A program made the translations under genes and the position numbers. Under the pieces are notes generated by a model. It saw only the letters and a list, made by a program, of their open reading frames with translations. It was not told where the DNA came from and did no database searches. From a phage, in NCBI GenBank assembly GCA_014913405.1, contig GCA_014913405.1_3931.1: 64,000 nucleotides of DNA; one strand, written 5' to 3'. Shown piece by piece: positions 21,136 through 47,182 of this stretch. How positions within the stretch are numbered: position 1 is the first letter of the stretch; the number at the start of each line of letters is the position of its first letter.

Positions 21136-23502
21136 ATGCGCATGGTAAATGACCACGCAGAAGTGATTAAGAGTTCAACTTCTTTAGAGACGTCTCAAGC
21201 ACAGATTACAATGACACCTGAGATGTTCAGCCTTTTGAGTTCTGGTGTATATACCTTTAAAGAAAGGGCAGTGATTCGTGAACTGTCATGTAACGCAGTA
21301 GATGCTCAGAAAGAAGCTGGAAAAGAGAACATTCCGTTCCATGTGCATTTACCTACTCGTTTTGAGCCTTACTTTGAAGTTCGTGATTTTGGAACTGGAT
21401 TGACTCATGATAAAGTTATGAGTTTGTACCTAAACTACGGGGCTTCTACGAAGAATGACTCTAATGACTACATTGGTGCAATGGGTATCGGCTCAAAATC
21501 CCCATTTGCAATTGCTCAGTCATTCACAGTATCTAGCTATGTTGATGGTGTTGTTAATAAGTACTCTGTTTATCTTGAGAATGGTATCCCTCAAGTAACT
21601 AAGCTGACCACTAACCCAACAAAAGAACCTAATGGTTTAGCTGTACGTGTGGCAGTTGCTGACCACCGTATCTCAAAGTTCTTTGAAGAAGCTGGAAATG
21701 TGTACTCATACTTCACTGTAAAACCAGAAAGTAATATTGAGTACGACGATGTATTAGCAGATATGAACGTCATTGCCCGTGAAGAAGGTGTTTATGATGC
21801 CATGATTCATAAGCAAAGCTGGCGTTCTAGTGGTAACAGGACAGAGTTTAATGTGGTGATGGGTAATATTGCCTATCCAGTGAACATGGAAGCATTACTT
21901 GGTGATGATTTCTTCAAAGTCTTGCCAGAGTTTTTCCGTAGGAGCGTAGACCTTGTAAACATCTACATGCCTATTGGTTCAGTTGCTATAGCAGCTTCTC
22001 GTGAAGCATTGCAGATGAATGATACGACAAAAAATGTTATCATCGAGGCTACCAAAAAGATAACTGAAGCAATTACAAAGGATGTTATCAAGAAAGTTAA
22101 TAGCCAACCTACACTCATGGATGCTGCACAGGCTTATGCAGAGCTACGTTTGAACTCACGAGAGATGTTTAATGCTGTGTGTCCAAAGCTAGAGTGGGGA
22201 GGCATTAAGCTTGATTCTCTGGAAGAAGAATTGTTAAACATTCGTCGTGGAATTATCTACGCAGAAGACGGCTCAGTCATTTATGAACGTGACGGTAAAG
22301 GCAATATTAAGGTTGATAGGAACGGGAACAATATCCCTAAAGTAGATTATCTTTATGACCCAGTTGCTTATGTCAAGTTCAACTCTTTAGAGAGTAAGAT
22401 TCGTGCAACAGCACTTTCCTACACTCAAGAGGCAAGCATGTTCAATATCTTTGGTGCAATGCGTAAAAGCCAAATTGAACAGTTTTTGTTCGTGATTAAT
22501 GACCGTCGCAATAAAAACGGTACTGAGAAGACTGTAGGACGCAATCAAATTTTGCGTGGTGCATGTCGAGACTACGCCAGTGAGTCAAATCTGTTTCACA
22601 GATACAATGGTATTGTCTTTGTATTCTCGACTGAAAAAGAGTTAGATGATTTAATCAATCTACACAAACTTGATAAAAGCTTGTTAAAGATTGTGAAGAT
22701 GTCTGATAAGGAACACCACTATCAGCGTAAAGAAGCTGTAAGGGGTGTTGTAAAACTCTGGAAAGCTGTTCCAGCAGAAACTAAAGCTTCATACAAAGAG
22801 GTGTCAGAAGACTTAGACACAATTGAAGAGCCTCAGCTTTATATTAAGGCAGTAGGTGACACAGTTGATGGTAGATGTTTTTGCTCATCTCCAGAGGATG
22901 TAGCTAAGTCAGTTGCTAATGTTACAGGCAAGACAGTCTATGTTTTCCGAAAAGCAAATTGGAAAAAGATACCAGAAGACTGGATTGAAGTAGATGAGAA
23001 GCTCTTGAACGACAGCTTAACTGATGTTCATTGGATTAACCATAACAGGTATATGACACGCATCTACATGGATGGTGTCCTCGACCTTACAAGCAGTTGG
23101 ATTATTGCCAGAAACTTTACGTTCAATAACAGGAAGATTTCTCGCGGGTATTGTTATTCAAGGGATACTATTAAGACAATCTTCTTAGAAGGGAATGAAG
23201 ATGCTGTTGAGGCAATGTTCGGTAAGATTCAGTATGTGGCTGCACCGTTTGCATACACTTACACTATCAGTGTTCTTCAGGATTTGAAGTCATGCCTTGA
23301 TAATGACACAAAACTGTACAAAAAGATTAAAAAAGCAGGTGACCGCATGGTTATCAAGCTGACAAACTATCTTTCAAAAAGAAAACAAGAAAACTTCTTG
23401 CTTTCACACTTAGATTGGAATAAAGTATCACCTATCGAAGTGAGTAAGTTTTTAGGCTTTAATGTGAAATGTGTTCCAGAAGGTACAACAATTTACGATT
23501 AA
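21136..23502 (+). CDS. rIIA: rIIA-like protein (GHKL ATPase-like N terminus)
   Basis: 788 aa; N-terminal IRELSCNAVDA (GHKL-type) motif; immediately upstream of the rIIB homolog. Confidence 0.65.
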   Translation: MRMVNDHAEVIKSSTSLETSQAQITMTPEMFSLLSSGVYTFKERAVIRELSCNAVDAQKEAGKENIPFHVHLPTRFEPYFEVRDFGTGLTHDKVMSLYLNYGASTKNDSNDYIGAMGIGSKSPFAIAQSFTVSSYVDGVVNKYSVYLENGIPQVTKLTTNPTKEPNGLAVRVAVADHRISKFFEEAGNVYSYFTVKPESNIEYDDVLADMNVIAREEGVYDAMIHKQSWRSSGNRTEFNVVMGNIAYPVNMEALLGDDFFKVLPEFFRRSVDLVNIYMPIGSVAIAASREALQMNDTTKNVIIEATKKITEAITKDVIKKVNSQPTLMDAAQAYAELRLNSREMFNAVCPKLEWGGIKLDSLEEELLNIRRGIIYAEDGSVIYERDGKGNIKVDRNGNNIPKVDYLYDPVAYVKFNSLESKIRATALSYTQEASMFNIFGAMRKSQIEQFLFVINDRRNKNGTEKTVGRNQILRGACRDYASESNLFHRYNGIVFVFSTEKELDDLINLHKLDKSLLKIVKMSDKEHHYQRKEAVRGVVKLWKAVPAETKASYKEVSEDLDTIEEPQLYIKAVGDTVDGRCFCSSPEDVAKSVANVTGKTVYVFRKANWKKIPEDWIEVDEKLLNDSLTDVHWINHNRYMTRIYMDGVLDLTSSWIIARNFTFNNRKISRGYCYSRDTIKTIFLEGNEDAVEAMFGKIQYVAAPFAYTYTISVLQDLKSCLDNDTKLYKKIKKAGDRMVIKLTNYLSKRKQENFLLSHLDWNKVSPIEVSKFLGFNVKCVPEGTTIYD

Positions 23503-23581: not shown

Positions 23582-24691
23582 ATGACTACTAAAACTAAAG
23601 CACAGATTGACGCAGAAATTTACAAACTGGTTAAAGAAGGTAAGCTGACTAAAACAGCTATTGCACAGAAGTTCAATACTTCAACCCGTTCAGTTGGTCG
23701 TGCTGTAGAGCGTCATGAAGCAACCTTAAAAGGCAAGAAGAAGGCAACTTCTACACCAGCTACGAAGACTTTGAAACAAGTTGCTAAGACTTTTAAAAAG
23801 AAAGCTGACAAACCAGTTGAAAAGGCCGTTAAAGACGCTGTACAGAAAGCCCCAGTAAATAAACTGCATGAAGCTATGCAGAAAGATGACAAGATTGAGT
23901 ACATGATTACTGGTGACTCTGTAATTATGACTTACGGTTCAGAATCTGAAATTGTTGAGTCTACTCATCCGAACTATCAAGAGATTGTAGTTCATGTTGT
24001 GAAAGGTGAGTTCAAGAAAGCATTTGAACTGATGAACATTCGTAAGTCTATCGAAAACTTCACTCAGGGTGCTATCACAATCAAAGGTGACAAGCTCTTC
24101 TACGGTGCTGTTGAGATGCGTTCTACTCTGGTTGACCGTATTCTTCACATGATGAAAACTGGTGATAAAGGTTTTGAACGACTTGTAATGTTCTTCGAAA
24201 AACTGATGGAAAACCCATCTAAAGATTCTGTAGAACAACTTTGGGGATTTGTATCTCACCTTGATGTTGAAATTGATGAAGAAGGTTACATCATTGGTTG
24301 GAAGAAAGTCTCTACTCGTGAAGGCAAGCTGGTTGACTCTCACACCTACAAAGTGCCTAATGATTTGGGTAACATTGTAGAGATGCCACGTTGGATGGTT
24401 GATAACAACCGTAACGTAACTTGCTCTCAAGGTCTTCATGTTGGCGCTTGGGATTATGTTCGTTGCTTCTCAGGTGATACCATCCTGAAGGTACGTGTCC
24501 ATCCACGAGATGTTGTATCCGTACCAACTGATTACAACGATATGAAGATGCGTTCCTCTCGTTATGAAGTTGCAGCAATCGTTGATAATCAACGTAAAGT
24601 GCTGAAAGCATGGGATGGTAAGACTGAAGCTTTGCATGTCATCGTTGGCACTGCTGGTGAACTTATCTCTCAACGTAAACGTGAAATCTAA
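23582..24691 (+). CDS. rIIB: rIIB-like protein
   Basis: C-terminal VRVHPRDVVSVPTDYNDMKMRSSRYEV closely matches the T4 rIIB C terminus as recalled; N-terminal HTH-like region. Confidence 0.7.
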   Translation: MTTKTKAQIDAEIYKLVKEGKLTKTAIAQKFNTSTRSVGRAVERHEATLKGKKKATSTPATKTLKQVAKTFKKKADKPVEKAVKDAVQKAPVNKLHEAMQKDDKIEYMITGDSVIMTYGSESEIVESTHPNYQEIVVHVVKGEFKKAFELMNIRKSIENFTQGAITIKGDKLFYGAVEMRSTLVDRILHMMKTGDKGFERLVMFFEKLMENPSKDSVEQLWGFVSHLDVEIDEEGYIIGWKKVSTREGKLVDSHTYKVPNDLGNIVEMPRWMVDNNRNVTCSQGLHVGAWDYVRCFSGDTILKVRVHPRDVVSVPTDYNDMKMRSSRYEVAAIVDNQRKVLKAWDGKTEALHVIVGTAGELISQRKREI

Positions 24692-24791: not shown

Positions 24792-25340
24792 ATGAAGAAA
24801 TTGATTCTAGGCTTGTGCTTAATGTTTACAGCACACTTATCTTATGCAGTTGACTGCCCAGAGCTATCAATTAGCCAAAAAGTTAACATGTTAAAAGCTT
24901 ACCAGTATGGTGAGAATAATATGGGGAAAGGCTGGGGTATTACTCTAGCAGCTATAGCCTTACAAGAGTCAGAGTTAGGTCTGAAGGTAGAGAATAAAAA
25001 GACCCACGACTATGGTATTTTCCAGAATCACTTGAAGACTGTTGTAAAGCGTAACAAAATTAGTCCTAATGTGGCTAAAAAGAAACTCTTAAAAGATTTT
25101 GACTATGCAGCAAAAGAGACACATAAAGAGCTTGAGTTTTGGACTAAGGTACATGGTCACCCGAAGTCAAAGAAGACTTTACAAAAAGTTTTAGCATCAT
25201 ATAATGCTGGGTATTCGTACAAAATCCCTAAAGCTAAGAAATACTCTCAAGATGTCTATAACAATATGAAAGTTATCGCTCAATGTGAATTTGCAACAAA
25301 CATTTCTAAGGTAAATCATGAAAAAATTAAGAAAGTCTGA
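24792..25340 (+). CDS. secreted lytic transglycosylase-like protein (signal peptide)
   Basis: N-terminal MKKLILGLCLMFTAHLSYA signal peptide; LQESELG...DYGIFQ resembles the SLT/lysozyme-like catalytic region. Confidence 0.4.
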   Translation: MKKLILGLCLMFTAHLSYAVDCPELSISQKVNMLKAYQYGENNMGKGWGITLAAIALQESELGLKVENKKTHDYGIFQNHLKTVVKRNKISPNVAKKKLLKDFDYAAKETHKELEFWTKVHGHPKSKKTLQKVLASYNAGYSYKIPKAKKYSQDVYNNMKVIAQCEFATNISKVNHEKIKKV

Positions 25341-26013
25341 TGAAGTCCTGTGCCATGCTTATGACTTGCATCCTCATGAGTTAGGTCTTGATTCCTGTGT
25401 ATGGACTCCAGAACAGTGCAGGGATTTTGAAGACACTGCAAGAGAAGTTGTATGTTCACTTGAAGATTTTCACACATCAGAACCAATTGTGAACGTTGTG
25501 GACAAAGAGACTGGACAAGCTATAGGTGTAAGGCGTGATAGTTTAGTCATAGTCAATAAAGACCTTGTAGAAAAAGGTAACCTCATCTTAGCAGATATTG
25601 ATGGTGTTCTTACAAATTTTAATCACGAAGATTGCTCAACGGAATTGACTGATGGGTCATTCTCACAGTACACTAATCTTCTTGACTCTGTAAGAGCAAA
25701 ACCAACGTATGTTTTTAGTATTATTGATGCAATTGCTAATCATGCTGCCATTGGACTCTTGACAGCGAGAGGTGAATCTCAGAGAATACCTACTGAGATG
25801 TTTTTAAGGCATAACATAGAGCATGATTACATGCTTTTTATGCGTGGTTTTGGAACTAACTCTATAAGTGCAGAAAGTTTAAAAGTGAGGATGATTCAGT
25901 CTTGCATTCTTCCTTATTTTAATATAGTATGCTTTATAGAAGATACAGAGAAGAATGTTCAGAAGGTAAACAGAATCCTTCCACACATTAAAACCATGTT
26001 AGTTAAACATTGA
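25318..26013 (+). CDS. hypothetical protein, possibly HAD-like phosphatase
   Basis: LADIDGVLTNF resembles HAD motif I (DxDG). Confidence 0.3.
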   Translation: MKKLRKSDEVLCHAYDLHPHELGLDSCVWTPEQCRDFEDTAREVVCSLEDFHTSEPIVNVVDKETGQAIGVRRDSLVIVNKDLVEKGNLILADIDGVLTNFNHEDCSTELTDGSFSQYTNLLDSVRAKPTYVFSIIDAIANHAAIGLLTARGESQRIPTEMFLRHNIEHDYMLFMRGFGTNSISAESLKVRMIQSCILPYFNIVCFIEDTEKNVQKVNRILPHIKTMLVKH

Positions 26014-26024
26014 GAGAAAAACTT

Positions 26025-26489
26025 ATGAACAATATCATTACGGTAGCACTGGACGATACGGCAAACAAATCTGAAGTAGTTCGTAAAATGATTCAAGGTA
26101 ACTTTGAAGGTAAAATTTTCCGTGCTGTTAATGTAAAAGCTGATGGCAGTATTCGTGAATACCGTGCATTGTTGAATGTTAAAAAGCACGTAAAAGGTGC
26201 TGGTTCAACGACTGCACACAAAGAAAACCTGATGACTATCTATGATATGGGTAAGGCTTCAGAGTTAGGTGCTGAAGGTATCGTTAAAGAAGGTGCTCCG
26301 TATCGCTCTTTCAATCTGGAAACTACTCTTATGCTTTCCTTTACGAGTGGTTCTAAAACAATCACTTATCTCTTTACTGATGCTGCAACGGTATCTGCTA
26401 TTAAGGATAGCACTGTCAAAGCTGGCGTAGTTGCTGCTGCAAAAGCTTCTTCGATGGCTGCAAATATCCTTGCTAAAGTCCTCGGTTAA
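26025..26489 (+). CDS. hypothetical protein
   Basis: ATG at 26025 after GAGAGAAAA (track start TTG at 26010). Confidence 0.4.
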   Translation: MNNIITVALDDTANKSEVVRKMIQGNFEGKIFRAVNVKADGSIREYRALLNVKKHVKGAGSTTAHKENLMTIYDMGKASELGAEGIVKEGAPYRSFNLETTLMLSFTSGSKTITYLFTDAATVSAIKDSTVKAGVVAAAKASSMAANILAKVLG

Positions 26490-26499
26490 GGTTAAGATA

Positions 26500-26523
26500 C
26501 AGGCTCCTTCGGGAGCCTTTTTC
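26500..26523 (+). terminator. rho-independent terminator
   Basis: GGCTCC-TTCG-GGAGCC followed by TTTTT. Confidence 0.6.
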
Positions 26524-26541
26524 ATTTCAGGAGATTGTTAA

Positions 26542-26889
26542 ATGACATTTAAAGAGTTCTGTCAAGCTACTTTCATAATTGTTTTCTTAGTTGGGGCAGG
26601 TGTCTGGGGAGGATACTCTTACAGAGACTACCAAGTTGCTGAAGCTGAGTTAAGCAATGAGAAACTAATAAGTGTTGCTAAAGATGCTTATCAGGAAGGT
26701 TTAGCCACACTGAGCACCAATTACAAAAATGATTTGAAAGATGTGCTTGCTAAGAATAAGCATACAAAAGAGGTACTAACATATGAAAAAACTAAGCCAG
26801 AGTTTTATAATGTTTGTGTTACTGATAATTATGTCAGGGTGTTCAACGAACAAAGTGAACAGTACATTCAAAAACTCCCAAGTAAGTGA
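26542..26889 (+). CDS. putative i-spanin-like protein (N-terminal transmembrane segment)
   Basis: N-terminal hydrophobic helix FIIVFLVGAGVWGG then a charged, helical region; 3' end overlaps a lipoprotein ORF in another frame. Confidence 0.35.
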   Translation: MTFKEFCQATFIIVFLVGAGVWGGYSYRDYQVAEAELSNEKLISVAKDAYQEGLATLSTNYKNDLKDVLAKNKHTKEVLTYEKTKPEFYNVCVTDNYVRVFNEQSEQYIQKLPSK

Positions 26890-27052
26890 GAGTGACAAGT
26901 ACACTCAAGAAGAGTCAAGATTCACTGTCAAAGGTAATACTGGTAGTGATGTGGCAGCAGCCCTTGAGTTTTATCGTGATGGTTTTTACCAGTGCACAAT
27001 CAAAGCTAATAACCTTATTGATATGATTTTATTAGGAAATAAACAGCAATGA
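26783..27052 (+). CDS. putative o-spanin-like lipoprotein
   Basis: signal peptide with lipobox IIMSGC; starts inside the 3' end of the preceding ORF. Confidence 0.35.
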   Translation: MKKLSQSFIMFVLLIIMSGCSTNKVNSTFKNSQVSESDKYTQEESRFTVKGNTGSDVAAALEFYRDGFYQCTIKANNLIDMILLGNKQQ

Positions 27053-28346: not shown

Positions 28347-29126
28347 ATGGGTATTGTAAAAGTTGTGAAAGGTAACTTACTAGCTGCCTTCAAAAACACA
28401 GACATTGAGTTAATTGCTCATGGTTGCAACTGCCGTAACCTCATGGGTGCTGGAATCGCTCAAAAAATTGCTAAGATTTTCCCAAAAGCTGAAGAAGCTG
28501 ACCGGAAATTCCATAAAAAGTTTGGCTACAGCGCTCATGATATCGGATACCAGATGATTGGTGAGGTGTCACATGCTCGAACGGAGTATGGTTACATTTT
28601 TAACCTATATACACAGTTGGATGTTGGGAAGTGTGCATCATACCGATACTTAGTGGAGTCACTAGAAAAACTCCGTAAATTTTGCTGGATGCACAACATT
28701 CGTAAGATTGGTTTACCCATGATTGGTGCAGGTATCGGTGGTTTAGACGCACAAGCTGTGAAAAGCCTCATTAATAGCGTTATGTACAACGTTGATGTGT
28801 ACCTATACGTCTATGATGAAGCAATGGCAACTGTAGTTACCCCTAAGTATGCCACCTCAGCACCACAATTCTATGATGGTGTCGTGCTAAGTGACGGTAA
28901 GTCTAACCATGTTACCCTCTATCAGCTTGTTGATGGTAAGGTCGAGGCTAGTTACCCTCTGGTTAGTGAGATGGGTATGTGTAATAGTGAAATGTTCTCA
29001 ATTGACCCGTTTGGTAGATACGAAGGGGTGTTCTTTGATAGCTACCCAGCAGCATACATCTACACAACAAATCAGGATGAAGTTCACTACTTGCTGTATT
29101 CTAAAAAGTTCAAATTCATAAACTAA
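28347..29126 (+). CDS. putative macro-domain (ADP-ribose-binding/processing) protein
   Basis: N-terminal IELIAHGCNCRNLMGAGIAQKI resembles the macro-domain H-x-x-N-x-x-x-M-G-x-G-I-A signature (from memory). Confidence 0.4.
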   Translation: MGIVKVVKGNLLAAFKNTDIELIAHGCNCRNLMGAGIAQKIAKIFPKAEEADRKFHKKFGYSAHDIGYQMIGEVSHARTEYGYIFNLYTQLDVGKCASYRYLVESLEKLRKFCWMHNIRKIGLPMIGAGIGGLDAQAVKSLINSVMYNVDVYLYVYDEAMATVVTPKYATSAPQFYDGVVLSDGKSNHVTLYQLVDGKVEASYPLVSEMGMCNSEMFSIDPFGRYEGVFFDSYPAAYIYTTNQDEVHYLLYSKKFKFIN

Positions 29127-38767: not shown

Positions 38768-39271
38768 CTATAATTGTAGGTTGCATTCTTTACTTACCTC
38801 TTCAAGTTTAACCTCAGAGTCCTTAAGTCGTTTCTTATGAACTCTGAATCTTATTAGTGAGATGATGATACCAGCTAAAGGAACAGCATACAAGTACCAG
38901 ATATCATGTAGCTTTGCAGTAATCTGTGTAATTGTCAAATCTTGAGCTATGTAGCTGATTGCTGATACTGCTAGTAATGTTGCTAAGAAAAACACTAGTA
39001 TCATTGCAATATTCATACAACCTCTTGCATGGTACTCATGCTTAATACACTTATTCTTTTCGTCAACAACCCTGTTGTAGTCGTTTGTAAAGTCTCTGTA
39101 GAAAGCTTTCAAGTATTCTTTATTGTAGCCTTCAAAGCAACCTGTACCGTACCAATAATCACCACCAAAATGTGCTATGATACCAGTATCTCCGTTTGGT
39201 TTGGTTACTCTTAGAGAGACATGATGACCAGTCTTCTGGTAATCTATCTTATATCTTTCTTCGTAAATCAT
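38768..39271 (-). CDS. hypothetical membrane protein (two C-terminal transmembrane helices)
   Basis: hydrophobic segments MILVFFLATLLAVSAI and AVPLAGIIISLI. Confidence 0.4.
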   Translation of the reverse strand: MIYEERYKIDYQKTGHHVSLRVTKPNGDTGIIAHFGGDYWYGTGCFEGYNKEYLKAFYRDFTNDYNRVVDEKNKCIKHEYHARGCMNIAMILVFFLATLLAVSAISYIAQDLTITQITAKLHDIWYLYAVPLAGIIISLIRFRVHKKRLKDSEVKLEEVSKECNLQL

Positions 39272-41619: not shown

Positions 41620-42084
41620 TTACTTTGGATATACACTGTCAAGATAGATGTCAGCTTCCATTCTACGTCTGTTTTTCAGACCGTTTGAAGTGACCTTCTT
41701 ACCTTTGACTGTAACCTTGTTCCACCACTGCATAGCTTCTGCACAACCTACCTTATTACCAGCATTGTGGCGCTTGATAAATGTGGAATCCTGCATAGCT
41801 GTGATACCGATGTTGTATGTTTCACTTACAAGTGCATCGAACTCATTCTGAGTAGTTGGAACCTTGATAGCTTTGTTCACTGCTGCAACAAACTTCTCAA
41901 CATCCGCGAGAAGATACTGTTCAGCTTGTTCAGCGGTGATTTTCATTCCCATCTTAACAGGTTTTCCGTCAATACGGATTGTACCATACCCGATTGTTGG
42001 GATTCCGGCAGAGTCTTCGTAAGCCTCTAACTCCAGACCTTCGAAGAACTTAATAGCTTCTAAACCTTTTCTTGAGAGTTGCAT
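41620..42084 (-). CDS. endolysin (T4-lysozyme-like muramidase, GH24-like)
   Basis: GLELEAYEDSAGIPTIGYGT matches the phage lysozyme E...D...T(I)G(Y)G catalytic region; RBS GGAGG. Confidence 0.8.
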   Translation of the reverse strand: MQLSRKGLEAIKFFEGLELEAYEDSAGIPTIGYGTIRIDGKPVKMGMKITAEQAEQYLLADVEKFVAAVNKAIKVPTTQNEFDALVSETYNIGITAMQDSTFIKRHNAGNKVGCAEAMQWWNKVTVKGKKVTSNGLKNRRRMEADIYLDSVYPK

Positions 42085-42965
42085 TATGCCTCCCCTGCTG
42101 GGTTAACAGTAACTGTTGCAGCATTAGACGTTACAGAACCACCTGCACCAGTAACTACACAGGTGTAGCTTCCTGCATCAGCAGCGGTTGCACCTTCTTT
42201 GGTGTAAGTTGCAGTAGTTGCATCGAGGATGTCTTCCTCACCTTTCTTCCATTGGTAACCTGTCGCACCTGTTGCCACAACATTCAGCGTTAAGGTCTCA
42301 CCTTCAGTGATTTCTTGATTGGTTGGCTGTTGAGTGATAACTGGTAAAGCTTTCACAGTAACGGTTGCAGGGTTAGAAGTGACAGAACCACCTGCACCTG
42401 TTACAACGCAAGTGTATGAACCAGCATCAGAAGGTTCTACAGACTGTTTTGTGTAGGTTGCAGATGTGGCGCTAGTGATATCCTCACCATCCTTTTTCCA
42501 TTGATATCCAGTGGCATTAGTTGCAATAACACTTAGGGTAAGTGTACCACCTTCATTTACTGTTTGATTGGTTGGTTGCTGAGTGATTGATGGTGGCTTG
42601 ATAGCGTCCTTCAACTTAGCATTCAACATTGAGAATGGTTTAACTCTTGCCAGCCATTCACAATAAACTGTATCAACGTCTTTACCATTGATAATTGCAT
42701 ATTGTAAGTCCATGAAGAAGTCAGAAGTTCTCATTTGAGCACCAACACTGTAAAGCAACTCATCACTAAATGGAACTTTGTAGTCTGGTTTATAGTCAAA
42801 CTTCTCAACTTCTGCAATATCAGCTTCAGGCCAATACGAGCTATAGGTAAGTGGTAAAATAGCCTCTTGATATGTTCTAAAATCATATCTCTTACCAGCC
42901 TTTACGTTTGCAATGAAGCCCTTCACAAACTCTTTGAAGTCTGGGTAAGTCTTTGCTTTAATCAT
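42084..42965 (-). CDS. protein with two tandem Ig-like domains
   Basis: two near-identical ~80-aa repeats (ITQQPTNQ...GYQWKK...DAGSYTCVVTGAGGSVTSN.ATVTV); N-terminal domain is paralogous to the upstream ORF. Confidence 0.5.
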   Translation of the reverse strand: MIKAKTYPDFKEFVKGFIANVKAGKRYDFRTYQEAILPLTYSSYWPEADIAEVEKFDYKPDYKVPFSDELLYSVGAQMRTSDFFMDLQYAIINGKDVDTVYCEWLARVKPFSMLNAKLKDAIKPPSITQQPTNQTVNEGGTLTLSVIATNATGYQWKKDGEDITSATSATYTKQSVEPSDAGSYTCVVTGAGGSVTSNPATVTVKALPVITQQPTNQEITEGETLTLNVVATGATGYQWKKGEEDILDATTATYTKEGATAADAGSYTCVVTGAGGSVTSNAATVTVNPAGEA

Positions 42966-46623: not shown

Positions 46624-46700
46624 CTCTGTTTAGCTCAGCTTGGTAGAGCGTTCCGTTTGGGGCGGTAAGGCCGGAGGTTCAAGTCCTCCAACAGAGACCA
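46624..46700 (+). tRNA. tRNA-Pro (anticodon TGG)
   Basis: hand-folded cloverleaf: 7-bp acceptor stem, T-loop GGTTCAAGTCC, anticodon loop TTTGGGG, CCA encoded. Confidence 0.65.
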
Positions 46701-46707
46701 AATTAAT

Positions 46708-46785
46708 GTTCCAGTGGACAAAATGGTAAAGTCACCACTCTTTCAAAGTGGATATTTGAGGGTTCAAATCCCTTCTGGAACGCCA
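46708..46785 (+). tRNA. tRNA-Glu (anticodon TTC)
   Basis: acceptor GTTCCAG/CTGGAAC, anticodon arm CCACT-CTTTCAA-AGTGG, T-loop TTCAAAT. Confidence 0.65.
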
Positions 46786-46877
46786 GTTTTGACAGAAGAC
46801 CAATTACAGCAAACTTAATCTTATTCATCTGAAGGTAAATCGGACAAAGAAGAGATTTGGTCTGGTCATTAAGAATT

Positions 46878-46953
46878 GCGGGTATAGAGAAAGGGCGTCT
46901 CACATGTCTCATTAGCATGGTATCGGCAGGTTCGACTCCTGCACCCGCCTCCA
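46878..46953 (+). tRNA. tRNA-Met (anticodon CAT)
   Basis: T-loop GGTTCGACTCC, anticodon loop CTCATTA. Confidence 0.55.
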
Positions 46954-47036
46954 AATTTACAGAAGACCGTTTACAGCAATATTTATTAAATTTTTAGCGG
47001 AAAAATTGAAAGATACGGTCTGGTAATACTAAACAT

Positions 47037-47113
47037 GGTTAGGAAGCACATAAGGTATGTGCGGTCGCCTGTTAAGCGAATGGCACAGGGTTCGAATCCC
47101 TGACTAACCGCCA
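47037..47113 (+). tRNA. tRNA-Asn (anticodon GTT)
   Basis: T-loop GGTTCGAATCC, anticodon loop CTGTTAA. Confidence 0.6.
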
Positions 47114-47182
47114 AATTTAGGAGAGAAGCGATTGCTCACCGATTTGTAAGGTGCAAGTCCTTAGCCTGAATAGAAATCAAAT

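Follow-up and report, generated by a model that had tools for sequence, protein, structure and literature searches.

Two short genes that overlap in different reading frames, the first specifying a protein with an N-terminal transmembrane helix and the second a putative lipoprotein, raise the question of whether they encode a two-component spanin, although they lie among genes of early/middle type and on the strand opposite to a distant endolysin gene. The pair is found in a 64,000 nucleotide stretch of phage DNA (contig GCA_014913405.1_3931.1), referred to here as the window, that belongs to a Felixounavirus genome and shares 99.8% identity with Escherichia phage KEP1. The region is matched by 258 phage records, nearly all of which are Felixounavirus or related Ounavirinae; the hosts of the matching Ounavirinae records are Escherichia, Salmonella, Shigella and Citrobacter. 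The answer reached here is that both ORFs very probably are the subunits of the Felix O1-type ("JH2") two-component spanin, a putative function that is assigned from architecture, homology and gene neighborhood, and they are accordingly called i-spanin and o-spanin below. The spanin pair is already known and curated, and in this sense is an ordinary finding. Felix O1-type phages are in wide use for Salmonella and E. coli biocontrol, and an accurate inventory of their lysis genes therefore has some practical value; in several related GenBank records the o-spanin gene is mis-annotated. Beyond correct annotation the spanin pair matters little, and the outcome of a complementation experiment is expected to be unsurprising.

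Architecture of the overlapped gene pair

The initial annotation had described an ORF with an N-terminal transmembrane helix that is overlapped by about 100 nt, in another frame, by a long (89 aa) and not proline-rich ORF bearing a lipoprotein signal with a lipobox cysteine (IIMSGC). The ORFs, their coordinates and their strand are accurate in every detail checked (Table 1), and each of these structural features is recovered, the overlap measuring 107 nt. The membrane signals of both proteins were assessed by hydropathy and pattern scripts only. The Kyte-Doolittle profile of the i-spanin peaks at residues 6-24 with a 19-residue mean of 1.75, and the scan of all 115 residues found no second hydrophobic segment. 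The resulting layout is a short N-terminus, a single transmembrane helix and a periplasmic domain of ~88 aa.

The o-spanin N-terminus reads MKKLSQSFIMFVLLIIMSG followed by CST, and is predicted from its sequence to consist of a 19-aa signal peptide with lipobox IMSG-C (the hyphen marking the cleavage site), leaving a 70-aa mature lipoprotein. A PROSITE PS51257-like pattern (MFVLLIIMSGC) and a simple four-residue pattern written for this analysis (MSGC) both match the lipobox and point to Cys20. The +2 residue is Ser rather than Asp, and Ser or Thr occupies this position in all nine homologs; sorting by the Lol pathway to the inner leaflet of the outer membrane is therefore proposed. There is no hydrophobic segment in the mature protein, where the maximum 17-residue Kyte-Doolittle mean is 0.82, which does not fit a unimolecular spanin of the T1 gp11 type. 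The protein contains no proline at all. An 89-aa proline-free o-spanin is nevertheless not anomalous, since the o-spanins in the survey of Kongari et al. 2018 (PMC6139136) include some of 89-117 aa as well as a T4 family that has no proline-rich region.

Within the 107-nt overlap, the o-spanin frame specifies the signal peptide, the lipobox and the start of the linker, and the i-spanin frame specifies its most conserved motif (residues 82-102). The o-spanin gene then runs 163 nt past the i-spanin stop in its different frame, which places the pair in the overlapped class. Judged by the criteria for two-component spanins of Summer 2007, as these are restated in citing papers, and of Kongari 2018, the pair has a single N-terminal TMD, a lipobox without Asp at +2, and adjacent genes on the same strand with the i-spanin first. 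Location in a lysis cassette, which is usual but not obligatory for spanins, is not seen for the window pair. The o-spanin ORF is the sole credible lipoprotein ORF in the 64-kb window. A second lipobox ORF (42072..42293, with a TTG start) was rejected, being antisense to the endolysin and Ig-domain genes, Cys-rich, and lacking a real hydrophobic core.

Table 1. Positions within the 64-kb window of the putative spanin genes, their signals, neighboring genes and other predicted lysis genes
Feature	Coordinates	Strand	Description and evidence
rIIA	21136..23502		Co-oriented with the spanin pair
rIIB	23582..24691		Co-oriented with the spanin pair
Polynucleotide kinase	25318..26013		Co-oriented with the spanin pair
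Terminator-like hairpin	26501..26528	+	7-bp stem, UUCG loop and T-run; just 5' of the i-spanin ribosome binding site
Shine-Dalgarno AGGAG	26529..26533	+	8 nt 5' of the i-spanin ATG
i-spanin gene	26542..26889	+	115 aa, ATG start; ORF, hydropathy, phrog_1152, identity to Felix O1 p014
i-spanin transmembrane helix codons	26557..26613	+	Residues ~6-24, FCQATFIIVFLVGAGVWGG; Kyte-Doolittle maximum
Shine-Dalgarno GAGG	26770..26773	+	9 nt 5' of the o-spanin ATG, within the i-spanin gene
o-spanin gene	26783..27052	+	89 aa, ATG start; ORF, lipobox patterns, phrog_4180, identity to Felix O1 p015
Dual-coding overlap	26783..26889	+	107 nt; i-spanin residues 81-115, o-spanin residues 1-35
i-spanin Cys92 codon	26815..26817	+	Its only periplasmic cysteine; invariant alignment column
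o-spanin Cys20 codon	26840..26842	+	Predicted lipidated first mature residue; invariant in nine homologs
o-spanin Cys71 codon	26993..26995	+	Invariant; only cysteine of the mature protein besides Cys20
Endolysin	41620..42084	-	Soluble lysozyme, 154 aa; Phage_lysozyme PF00959 (E 4.5e-41), phrog_7 endolysin (E 4.1e-58)
Putative holin	49917..50474	+	185 aa, one N-terminal hydrophobic helix; 96% identity to the Mushroom "holin" CDS

Relationship to the curated Felix O1 spanins

The spanin-pair reading of the initial annotation agrees with published curation. Table S1 of Kongari et al. 2018 (PMC6139136) lists Felix O1 p014 and p015 as an overlapped i-spanin and o-spanin of family "JH2", a family whose two subunits are both found in phages JH2, EC6, FO1a, WV8, Moogle, Mushroom and UAB_phi87, and whose i-spanin family extends to the phiEco32-like phages. 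The same source gives the Felix O1 i-spanin as a 348-nt gene for a 115-aa protein, with a 27-residue N-terminal region containing the TMD, an 88-aa periplasmic domain, one periplasmic cysteine and another in the TMD, and no predicted coiled coil. The Felix O1 o-spanin is given as 89 aa, comprising a 19-aa signal with lipobox TMSG-C and a 70-aa mature protein. The p014/p015 overlap is 107 nt, as it is in Moogle, and AGGAG precedes the i-spanin gene in Felix O1, Moogle and Mushroom, with GAGGT preceding p015 (PMC6139136).

The window i-spanin shares 97% identity with p014 and 77% with its Moogle counterpart; for the o-spanin the values are 96% with p015 and 83% with the Moogle protein. Felix O1 and the window share the protein lengths, the 348-nt i-spanin gene, the extent of the overlap, the ribosome binding site motifs, the 19-aa signal, the CST start of the mature lipoprotein, and the periplasmic cysteine in each subunit. 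There are four substitutions in each protein, and the lipobox is TMSG-C in Felix O1 versus IMSG-C in the window, but the architecture is identical. The pair is annotated as i-spanin and o-spanin in the CPT-annotated Mushroom and Moogle genomes and in many other GenBank records. Spanins located elsewhere in the genome had been named in the initial annotation as evidence that would count against the pair; no second spanin annotation was found in the complete Mushroom genome, and the 64-kb window yielded no further spanin-like candidate, whether two-component or unimolecular.

Profile searches assign the i-spanin to phrog_1152 "Rz-like spanin" (E 8.9e-42). For the o-spanin there is a match to phrog_4180 (E 5.4e-51), which is labeled "unknown function", and a weak one to phrog_456 "Rz-like spanin" (E 7.9e-5). 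Pfam yielded sub-threshold noise only for both proteins, with no spanin-family match, and NCBIfam likewise gave only sub-threshold matches. Of the six NCBIfam matches to the o-spanin, five cover the first third to half of the protein, and most of the six are to lipoprotein families; these fit a lipoprotein signal and name no family. A PDB sequence search found no significant match to solved structures for either protein. Single-sequence AlphaFold2 models of the single chains were of low confidence (mean pLDDT 48 and 53) and are given no weight.

Conservation of the pair and dual-frame constraint

The comparison drew on the homologous loci of eight other phages, namely Citrobacter Moogle, Escherichia SUSP1, Hafnia Zyzzx, Erwinia phiEa104, Pectobacterium Arno18, Yersinia P778, the podovirus phiEco32, and Klebsiella e270.1. 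All eight carry a gene for a protein whose N-terminus is a hydrophobic helix, and across the 3' end of this gene runs a lipobox ORF in another frame of the same strand; this ORF begins with one or more basic residues (MK(K/R)L), continues through a hydrophobic core and reaches an (S/A)(G/A/S)C lipobox. The arrangement is maintained at i-spanin identities to the window pair as low as 22-36% and o-spanin identities as low as 26-46%. An N-terminal hydrophobic segment is found in all nine aligned i-spanin homologs, whose invariant residues include E82, K83, F88, C92, Y97 and N102; the invariant o-spanin residues are C20, G54, C71, N76 and L78. Each subunit thus has one invariant periplasmic cysteine, i-spanin C92 and o-spanin C71, which fits the homotypic disulfide links of two-component spanins, the disulfides here being predicted. 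At least one periplasmic cysteine is present in 507 of 528 spanin systems (Kongari 2018, PMC6139136).

Two of the relatives carry the pair beside recognizable lysis genes. Klebsiella e270.1 has the gene order holin, endolysin, small membrane protein and homologous i-/o-spanin pair, the holin being identified by phrog_24402 (E 2.7e-56) and the endolysin by its Glyco_hydro_108 and PG_binding_3 domains. The spanin homologs of e270.1 thus close a canonical lysis cassette, and the homologous pair of Yersinia P778 has a PF00959 endolysin directly upstream.

Nucleotide variation among eight Felix O1-like, Moogle and SUSP1 sequences, a small sample, is lower in the overlap (16% of sites variable) than in the i-spanin-only (30%) or o-spanin-only (35%) portions. 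Outside the overlap the variable third codon positions number 43 of 80 (i-only) and 38 of 55 (o-only); within it the third-position excess is lost in both frames, and 4 of 36 third positions vary. Both frames of the overlap are under selection in this small sample, the pattern expected if both encode proteins. Across 300-400 phage records both reading frames are strongly conserved. The overlap may have been sustained because the o-spanin signal peptide and linker, which lie opposite the conserved i-spanin motif, tolerate change.

Gene neighborhood and dispersed lysis genes

The neighbors of the spanin pair are genes of early/middle type in the same orientation, namely rIIA, rIIB, a RegB-like gene and polynucleotide kinase. 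Between this group and the i-spanin gene is a terminator-like hairpin. With a consensus scan yielding 5 such sites against an expectation of 2.8, and a modest fold z-score of -1.3, the hairpin is treated as a putative terminator.

The window carries a full lysis set in a dispersed T4-like layout: an endolysin, a putative holin and the i-/o-spanin pair. The endolysin is 97% identical to that of Mushroom and lies 14.6 kb downstream of the pair on the opposite strand, close to the ~15 kb given by the initial annotation, and the putative holin gene is 22.9 kb away. [quoted passage not shown]

No holin had been confidently identified at the outset. This holds insofar as the holin assignment is only a prediction, but a homolog of the Mushroom "holin" is present after all, lying amid 26 clustered tRNA genes. 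The profile libraries match it only to DUF7338 and to phrog_2143 "unknown function", and the holin call is therefore one of annotation. A 167-aa membrane protein (38768..39271) was also considered as a holin and dropped, its only match being to phrog_4343 "unknown function".

Alternative explanations for the pair

The gene neighborhood invites the interpretation that the pair is a non-lytic membrane protein and lipoprotein with an early role, such as superinfection exclusion or receptor masking, that resembles a spanin in topology only. Non-lytic phage lipoproteins have precedents in T5 Llp and the Cor-type proteins. The pair is co-oriented with rIIA, rIIB and polynucleotide kinase rather than with the far removed endolysin, the o-spanin phrog bears no functional label, and a literature search found neither a functional test of the pair nor other experimental work on "JH2" spanins (complementation, deletion or localization). 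Such a role is nonetheless very unlikely, given that homologs close the holin-endolysin cassette of e270.1 and directly follow the endolysin of P778, that the genes stay paired and overlapped across myoviruses and the podovirus phiEco32, and that each subunit has an invariant periplasmic cysteine, as spanins would have. PADLOC gave no match to defense-system models, which weakens an exclusion or defense function, and the proven spanin genes of T4 are likewise located apart from e and t.

Retention of the start, hydrophobic core and lipobox in nine of nine relatives, to 26% identity and despite DNA divergence, argues for translation of the full 89-aa ORF, as do the GAGG 9 nt before its ATG and the dual-frame constraint in the overlap. 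There is no purine-rich motif before the internal ATG at 26831, and a start there would give an MSGC N-terminus without a signal peptide. The chance is thus practically negligible that the ORF is not translated from 26783 and is either a chance ORF or a non-lipoprotein initiated at 26831, even though lipobox-signal ORFs are expected by chance at 0.83 +/- 0.82 per 64 kb in Markov-1 random sequences, and even though the Pr103Blw and EcoM2 records carry the short form and the gene is absent from the vB_EcoM_D4 annotation. A lipobox ORF at the 3' end of a same-strand gene for a membrane-anchored protein, when it is also deeply conserved, is therefore not due to chance, and annotation errors are common among o-spanins, 196 having been missed and 64 given a wrong start in 528 systems (PMC6139136). 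Those same three genomes bear on another proposal, that the pair is a true spanin homolog but dispensable or redundant, with an unrecognized factor such as a disruptin-like peptide disrupting the outer membrane. One felixounavirus paper describes a phage with an i-spanin alone annotated, and ~24 kb of genome outside the window, together with many small ORFs without assigned function, offers room for such a factor. However, the "missing" o-spanin is most simply an annotation miss like those in Pr103Blw, EcoM2 and vB_EcoM_D4, both frames of the pair are strongly conserved in the records noted above, and an alternative candidate was not found within the 64-kb window, making redundancy extremely unlikely.

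Proposed mechanism of the spanin pair

For the preferred identification as a two-component spanin, a mechanism may be proposed by analogy with lambda Rz/Rz1 and T4 PseT.3/PseT.2, as summarized in PMC6139136. The N-terminal helix of the i-spanin would insert into the inner membrane, with its mostly helical domain reaching into the periplasm, and the o-spanin would be exported, lipidated on Cys20, and freed of its signal peptide by signal peptidase II. Disulfide bonds, through Cys92 in the i-spanin and Cys71 in the o-spanin, probably link each subunit into a homodimer. Binding of the C-terminal parts of the two subunits would then create a bridge that spans the periplasm and is threaded through the peptidoglycan meshwork. 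Once the candidate holin permeabilizes the inner membrane and the endolysin degrades the wall, the spanin complexes would be free to collapse, and the collapsing complexes would fuse the inner and outer membranes, eliminating the last barrier to phage release.

Comparison with the T4, lambda and P2 spanins

Like the window pair, T4 PseT.3/PseT.2 is a two-component spanin with an o-spanin that is longer than lambda Rz1 and lacks a proline-rich region, and its genes are found at a distance from those for endolysin and holin and close to a polynucleotide kinase gene. The two systems differ in that the T4 genes are of separated rather than overlapped architecture, and in that the T4 i-spanin has no periplasmic cysteine and the o-spanin two, whereas each window subunit has one.

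Lambda Rz/Rz1 shares with the window pair the topology of a type II inner-membrane protein and an outer-membrane lipoprotein, the use of different frames of shared DNA, and a presumably similar mechanism; intermolecular disulfides are a feature of the lambda proteins (PMC6139136). However, the 60-aa Rz1 is encoded wholly within Rz and requires a penta-proline stretch, whereas the window o-spanin is partly overlapped, proline-free, and ends in a conserved LEFYRDxFxxC...NxLID segment. The lambda genes are part of the S-R-Rz lysis cassette, unlike the window pair, which is outside of any such cassette. Membership of the lambda Rz/Rz1 sequence family was considered and rejected on the basis of the overlapped gene, the absence of proline and the absence of a Pfam spanin match, and the window pair is therefore a functional analog of Rz/Rz1 rather than a member of its family.

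It is a doubtful though conceivable extension of these differences that the Felix O1/"JH2" proteins form a mechanistically distinct spanin class, characterized by a proline-free o-spanin, C-terminal pairing and expression by terminator read-through. The conserved C-terminal segment of the o-spanin, LE(F/Y)(Y/W)RDx(F/Y)xxC....NxL(I/L)(D/E), could pair with the conserved i-spanin motif EK.(K/Q/N)(P/T).F...C....Y...(F/Y)N, which is encoded in the overlap opposite the o-spanin signal peptide. As members of such a class the two genes would be expressed by read-through of the terminator ending an early/middle operon, and not from a late lysis cassette.

The overlapped arrangement itself has a counterpart in P2 LysB/LysC, where the o-spanin gene also extends past the end of the i-spanin gene; the P2 genes represent a different sequence family in the survey and, unlike the window pair, are situated within a lysis cassette.

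The o-spanin gene in related phages

The o-spanin, the lipoprotein member of the spanin pair, is mis-annotated in the GenBank records of the relatives Pr103Blw, EcoM2 and vB_EcoM_D4. In the first two the gene is started at an internal ATG, and the annotated product thus begins MSGC... and lacks the signal peptide. The vB_EcoM_D4 record is without an o-spanin, a short ORF in the third frame being called in its stead (see table).

The phiEco32 record gives a 57-aa "hypothetical protein" (phi32_38) at the site of a longer lipobox ORF, whose product is homologous to the o-spanin of the window (27% identity, pairwise E 3e-10). In a published survey of spanins, the family of Felix O1 ("JH2") includes the i-spanin of phiEco32 and lacks its o-spanin (PMC6139136). 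Comparison of the protein sequences suggests that the phiEco32 and Felix O1-type o-spanins are related, like their i-spanins.

Features of the window and of related phage records. Coordinates with an L number are local to a locus taken from the named phage.
Feature	Coordinates	Strand	Remarks
rIIA	21136..23502		just upstream of spanin pair
rIIB	23582..24691		just upstream of spanin pair
RegB-like endoribonuclease gene	24792..25340		just upstream of spanin pair
Polynucleotide kinase gene	25318..26013		phrog_3970
Conserved neighbour	26010..26489		159 aa, TTG start; phrog_2267, unknown function; directly 5' of spanin pair
Terminator-like hairpin and T-run	26501..26528		AGGCUCC-UUCG-GGAGCCU then UUUUUCAUUU
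Macro-domain protein gene	28347..29126		1.3 kb downstream of spanin pair
Possible membrane protein	38768..39271	-	167 aa; phrog_4343, unknown function
tRNA gene cluster	46624..51835	+	26 genes, all plus strand
Putative holin	49917..50474	+	185 aa, DUF7338; flanked by tRNA-Arg(acg) and tRNA-Gln(ttg)
Pr103Blw o-spanin as annotated	L001 3832..4053		start at internal ATG
EcoM2 o-spanin as annotated	L003 2331..2552		start at internal ATG
vB_EcoM_D4 third-frame ORF	L004 20893..21027		44 aa
phiEco32 lipobox ORF	L012 979..1239		86 aa; NC_010324 region 35273..35533
phiEco32 Macro-domain protein gene	L012 1239..1679		directly after o-spanin
phiEa104 "phosphatase"	L009 1084..1866		260 aa; same position and similar length to Macro-domain protein

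Genomic context of the spanin genes

The T4 spanin genes pseT.3 and pseT.2 take their names from the adjacent polynucleotide kinase gene pseT, and the spanin pair of the window resembles them in lying near a polynucleotide kinase gene. The gene directly 5' of the pair, whose product shows a weak WYL_2/SH3-like match, holds its place in Moogle and SUSP1; in Yersinia phage P778 the endolysin occupies this position. Arno18 and Zyzzx have ORFs of comparable size there.

The gap from the stop of this upstream gene (26489) to the i-spanin ribosome-binding site is filled by the terminator-like hairpin, which leaves no space for a promoter, so that the spanin genes would need read-through transcription. 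The predicted fold of the hairpin is statistically unexceptional (z -1.3). In Felix O1, Moogle and Mushroom, too, the i-spanin gene is listed with a T-run and AGGAG on its 5' side (PMC6139136).

Downstream, the Macro-domain proteins of the window and of phiEco32 match Pfam Macro at E 7e-7 and 8e-11, respectively, and a Macro-domain gene following the spanin pair may represent synteny conserved between Ounavirinae and Kuravirus. The phiEa104 "phosphatase" gave no match in the Pfam search.

Genes distant from the spanin pair

The location of the putative holin gene among tRNA genes is odd for a lysis gene. Within a minus-strand gene block, 2.3 kb from the endolysin gene, lies the gene for the possible membrane protein, whose hydrophobic segments fall within its C-terminal half.
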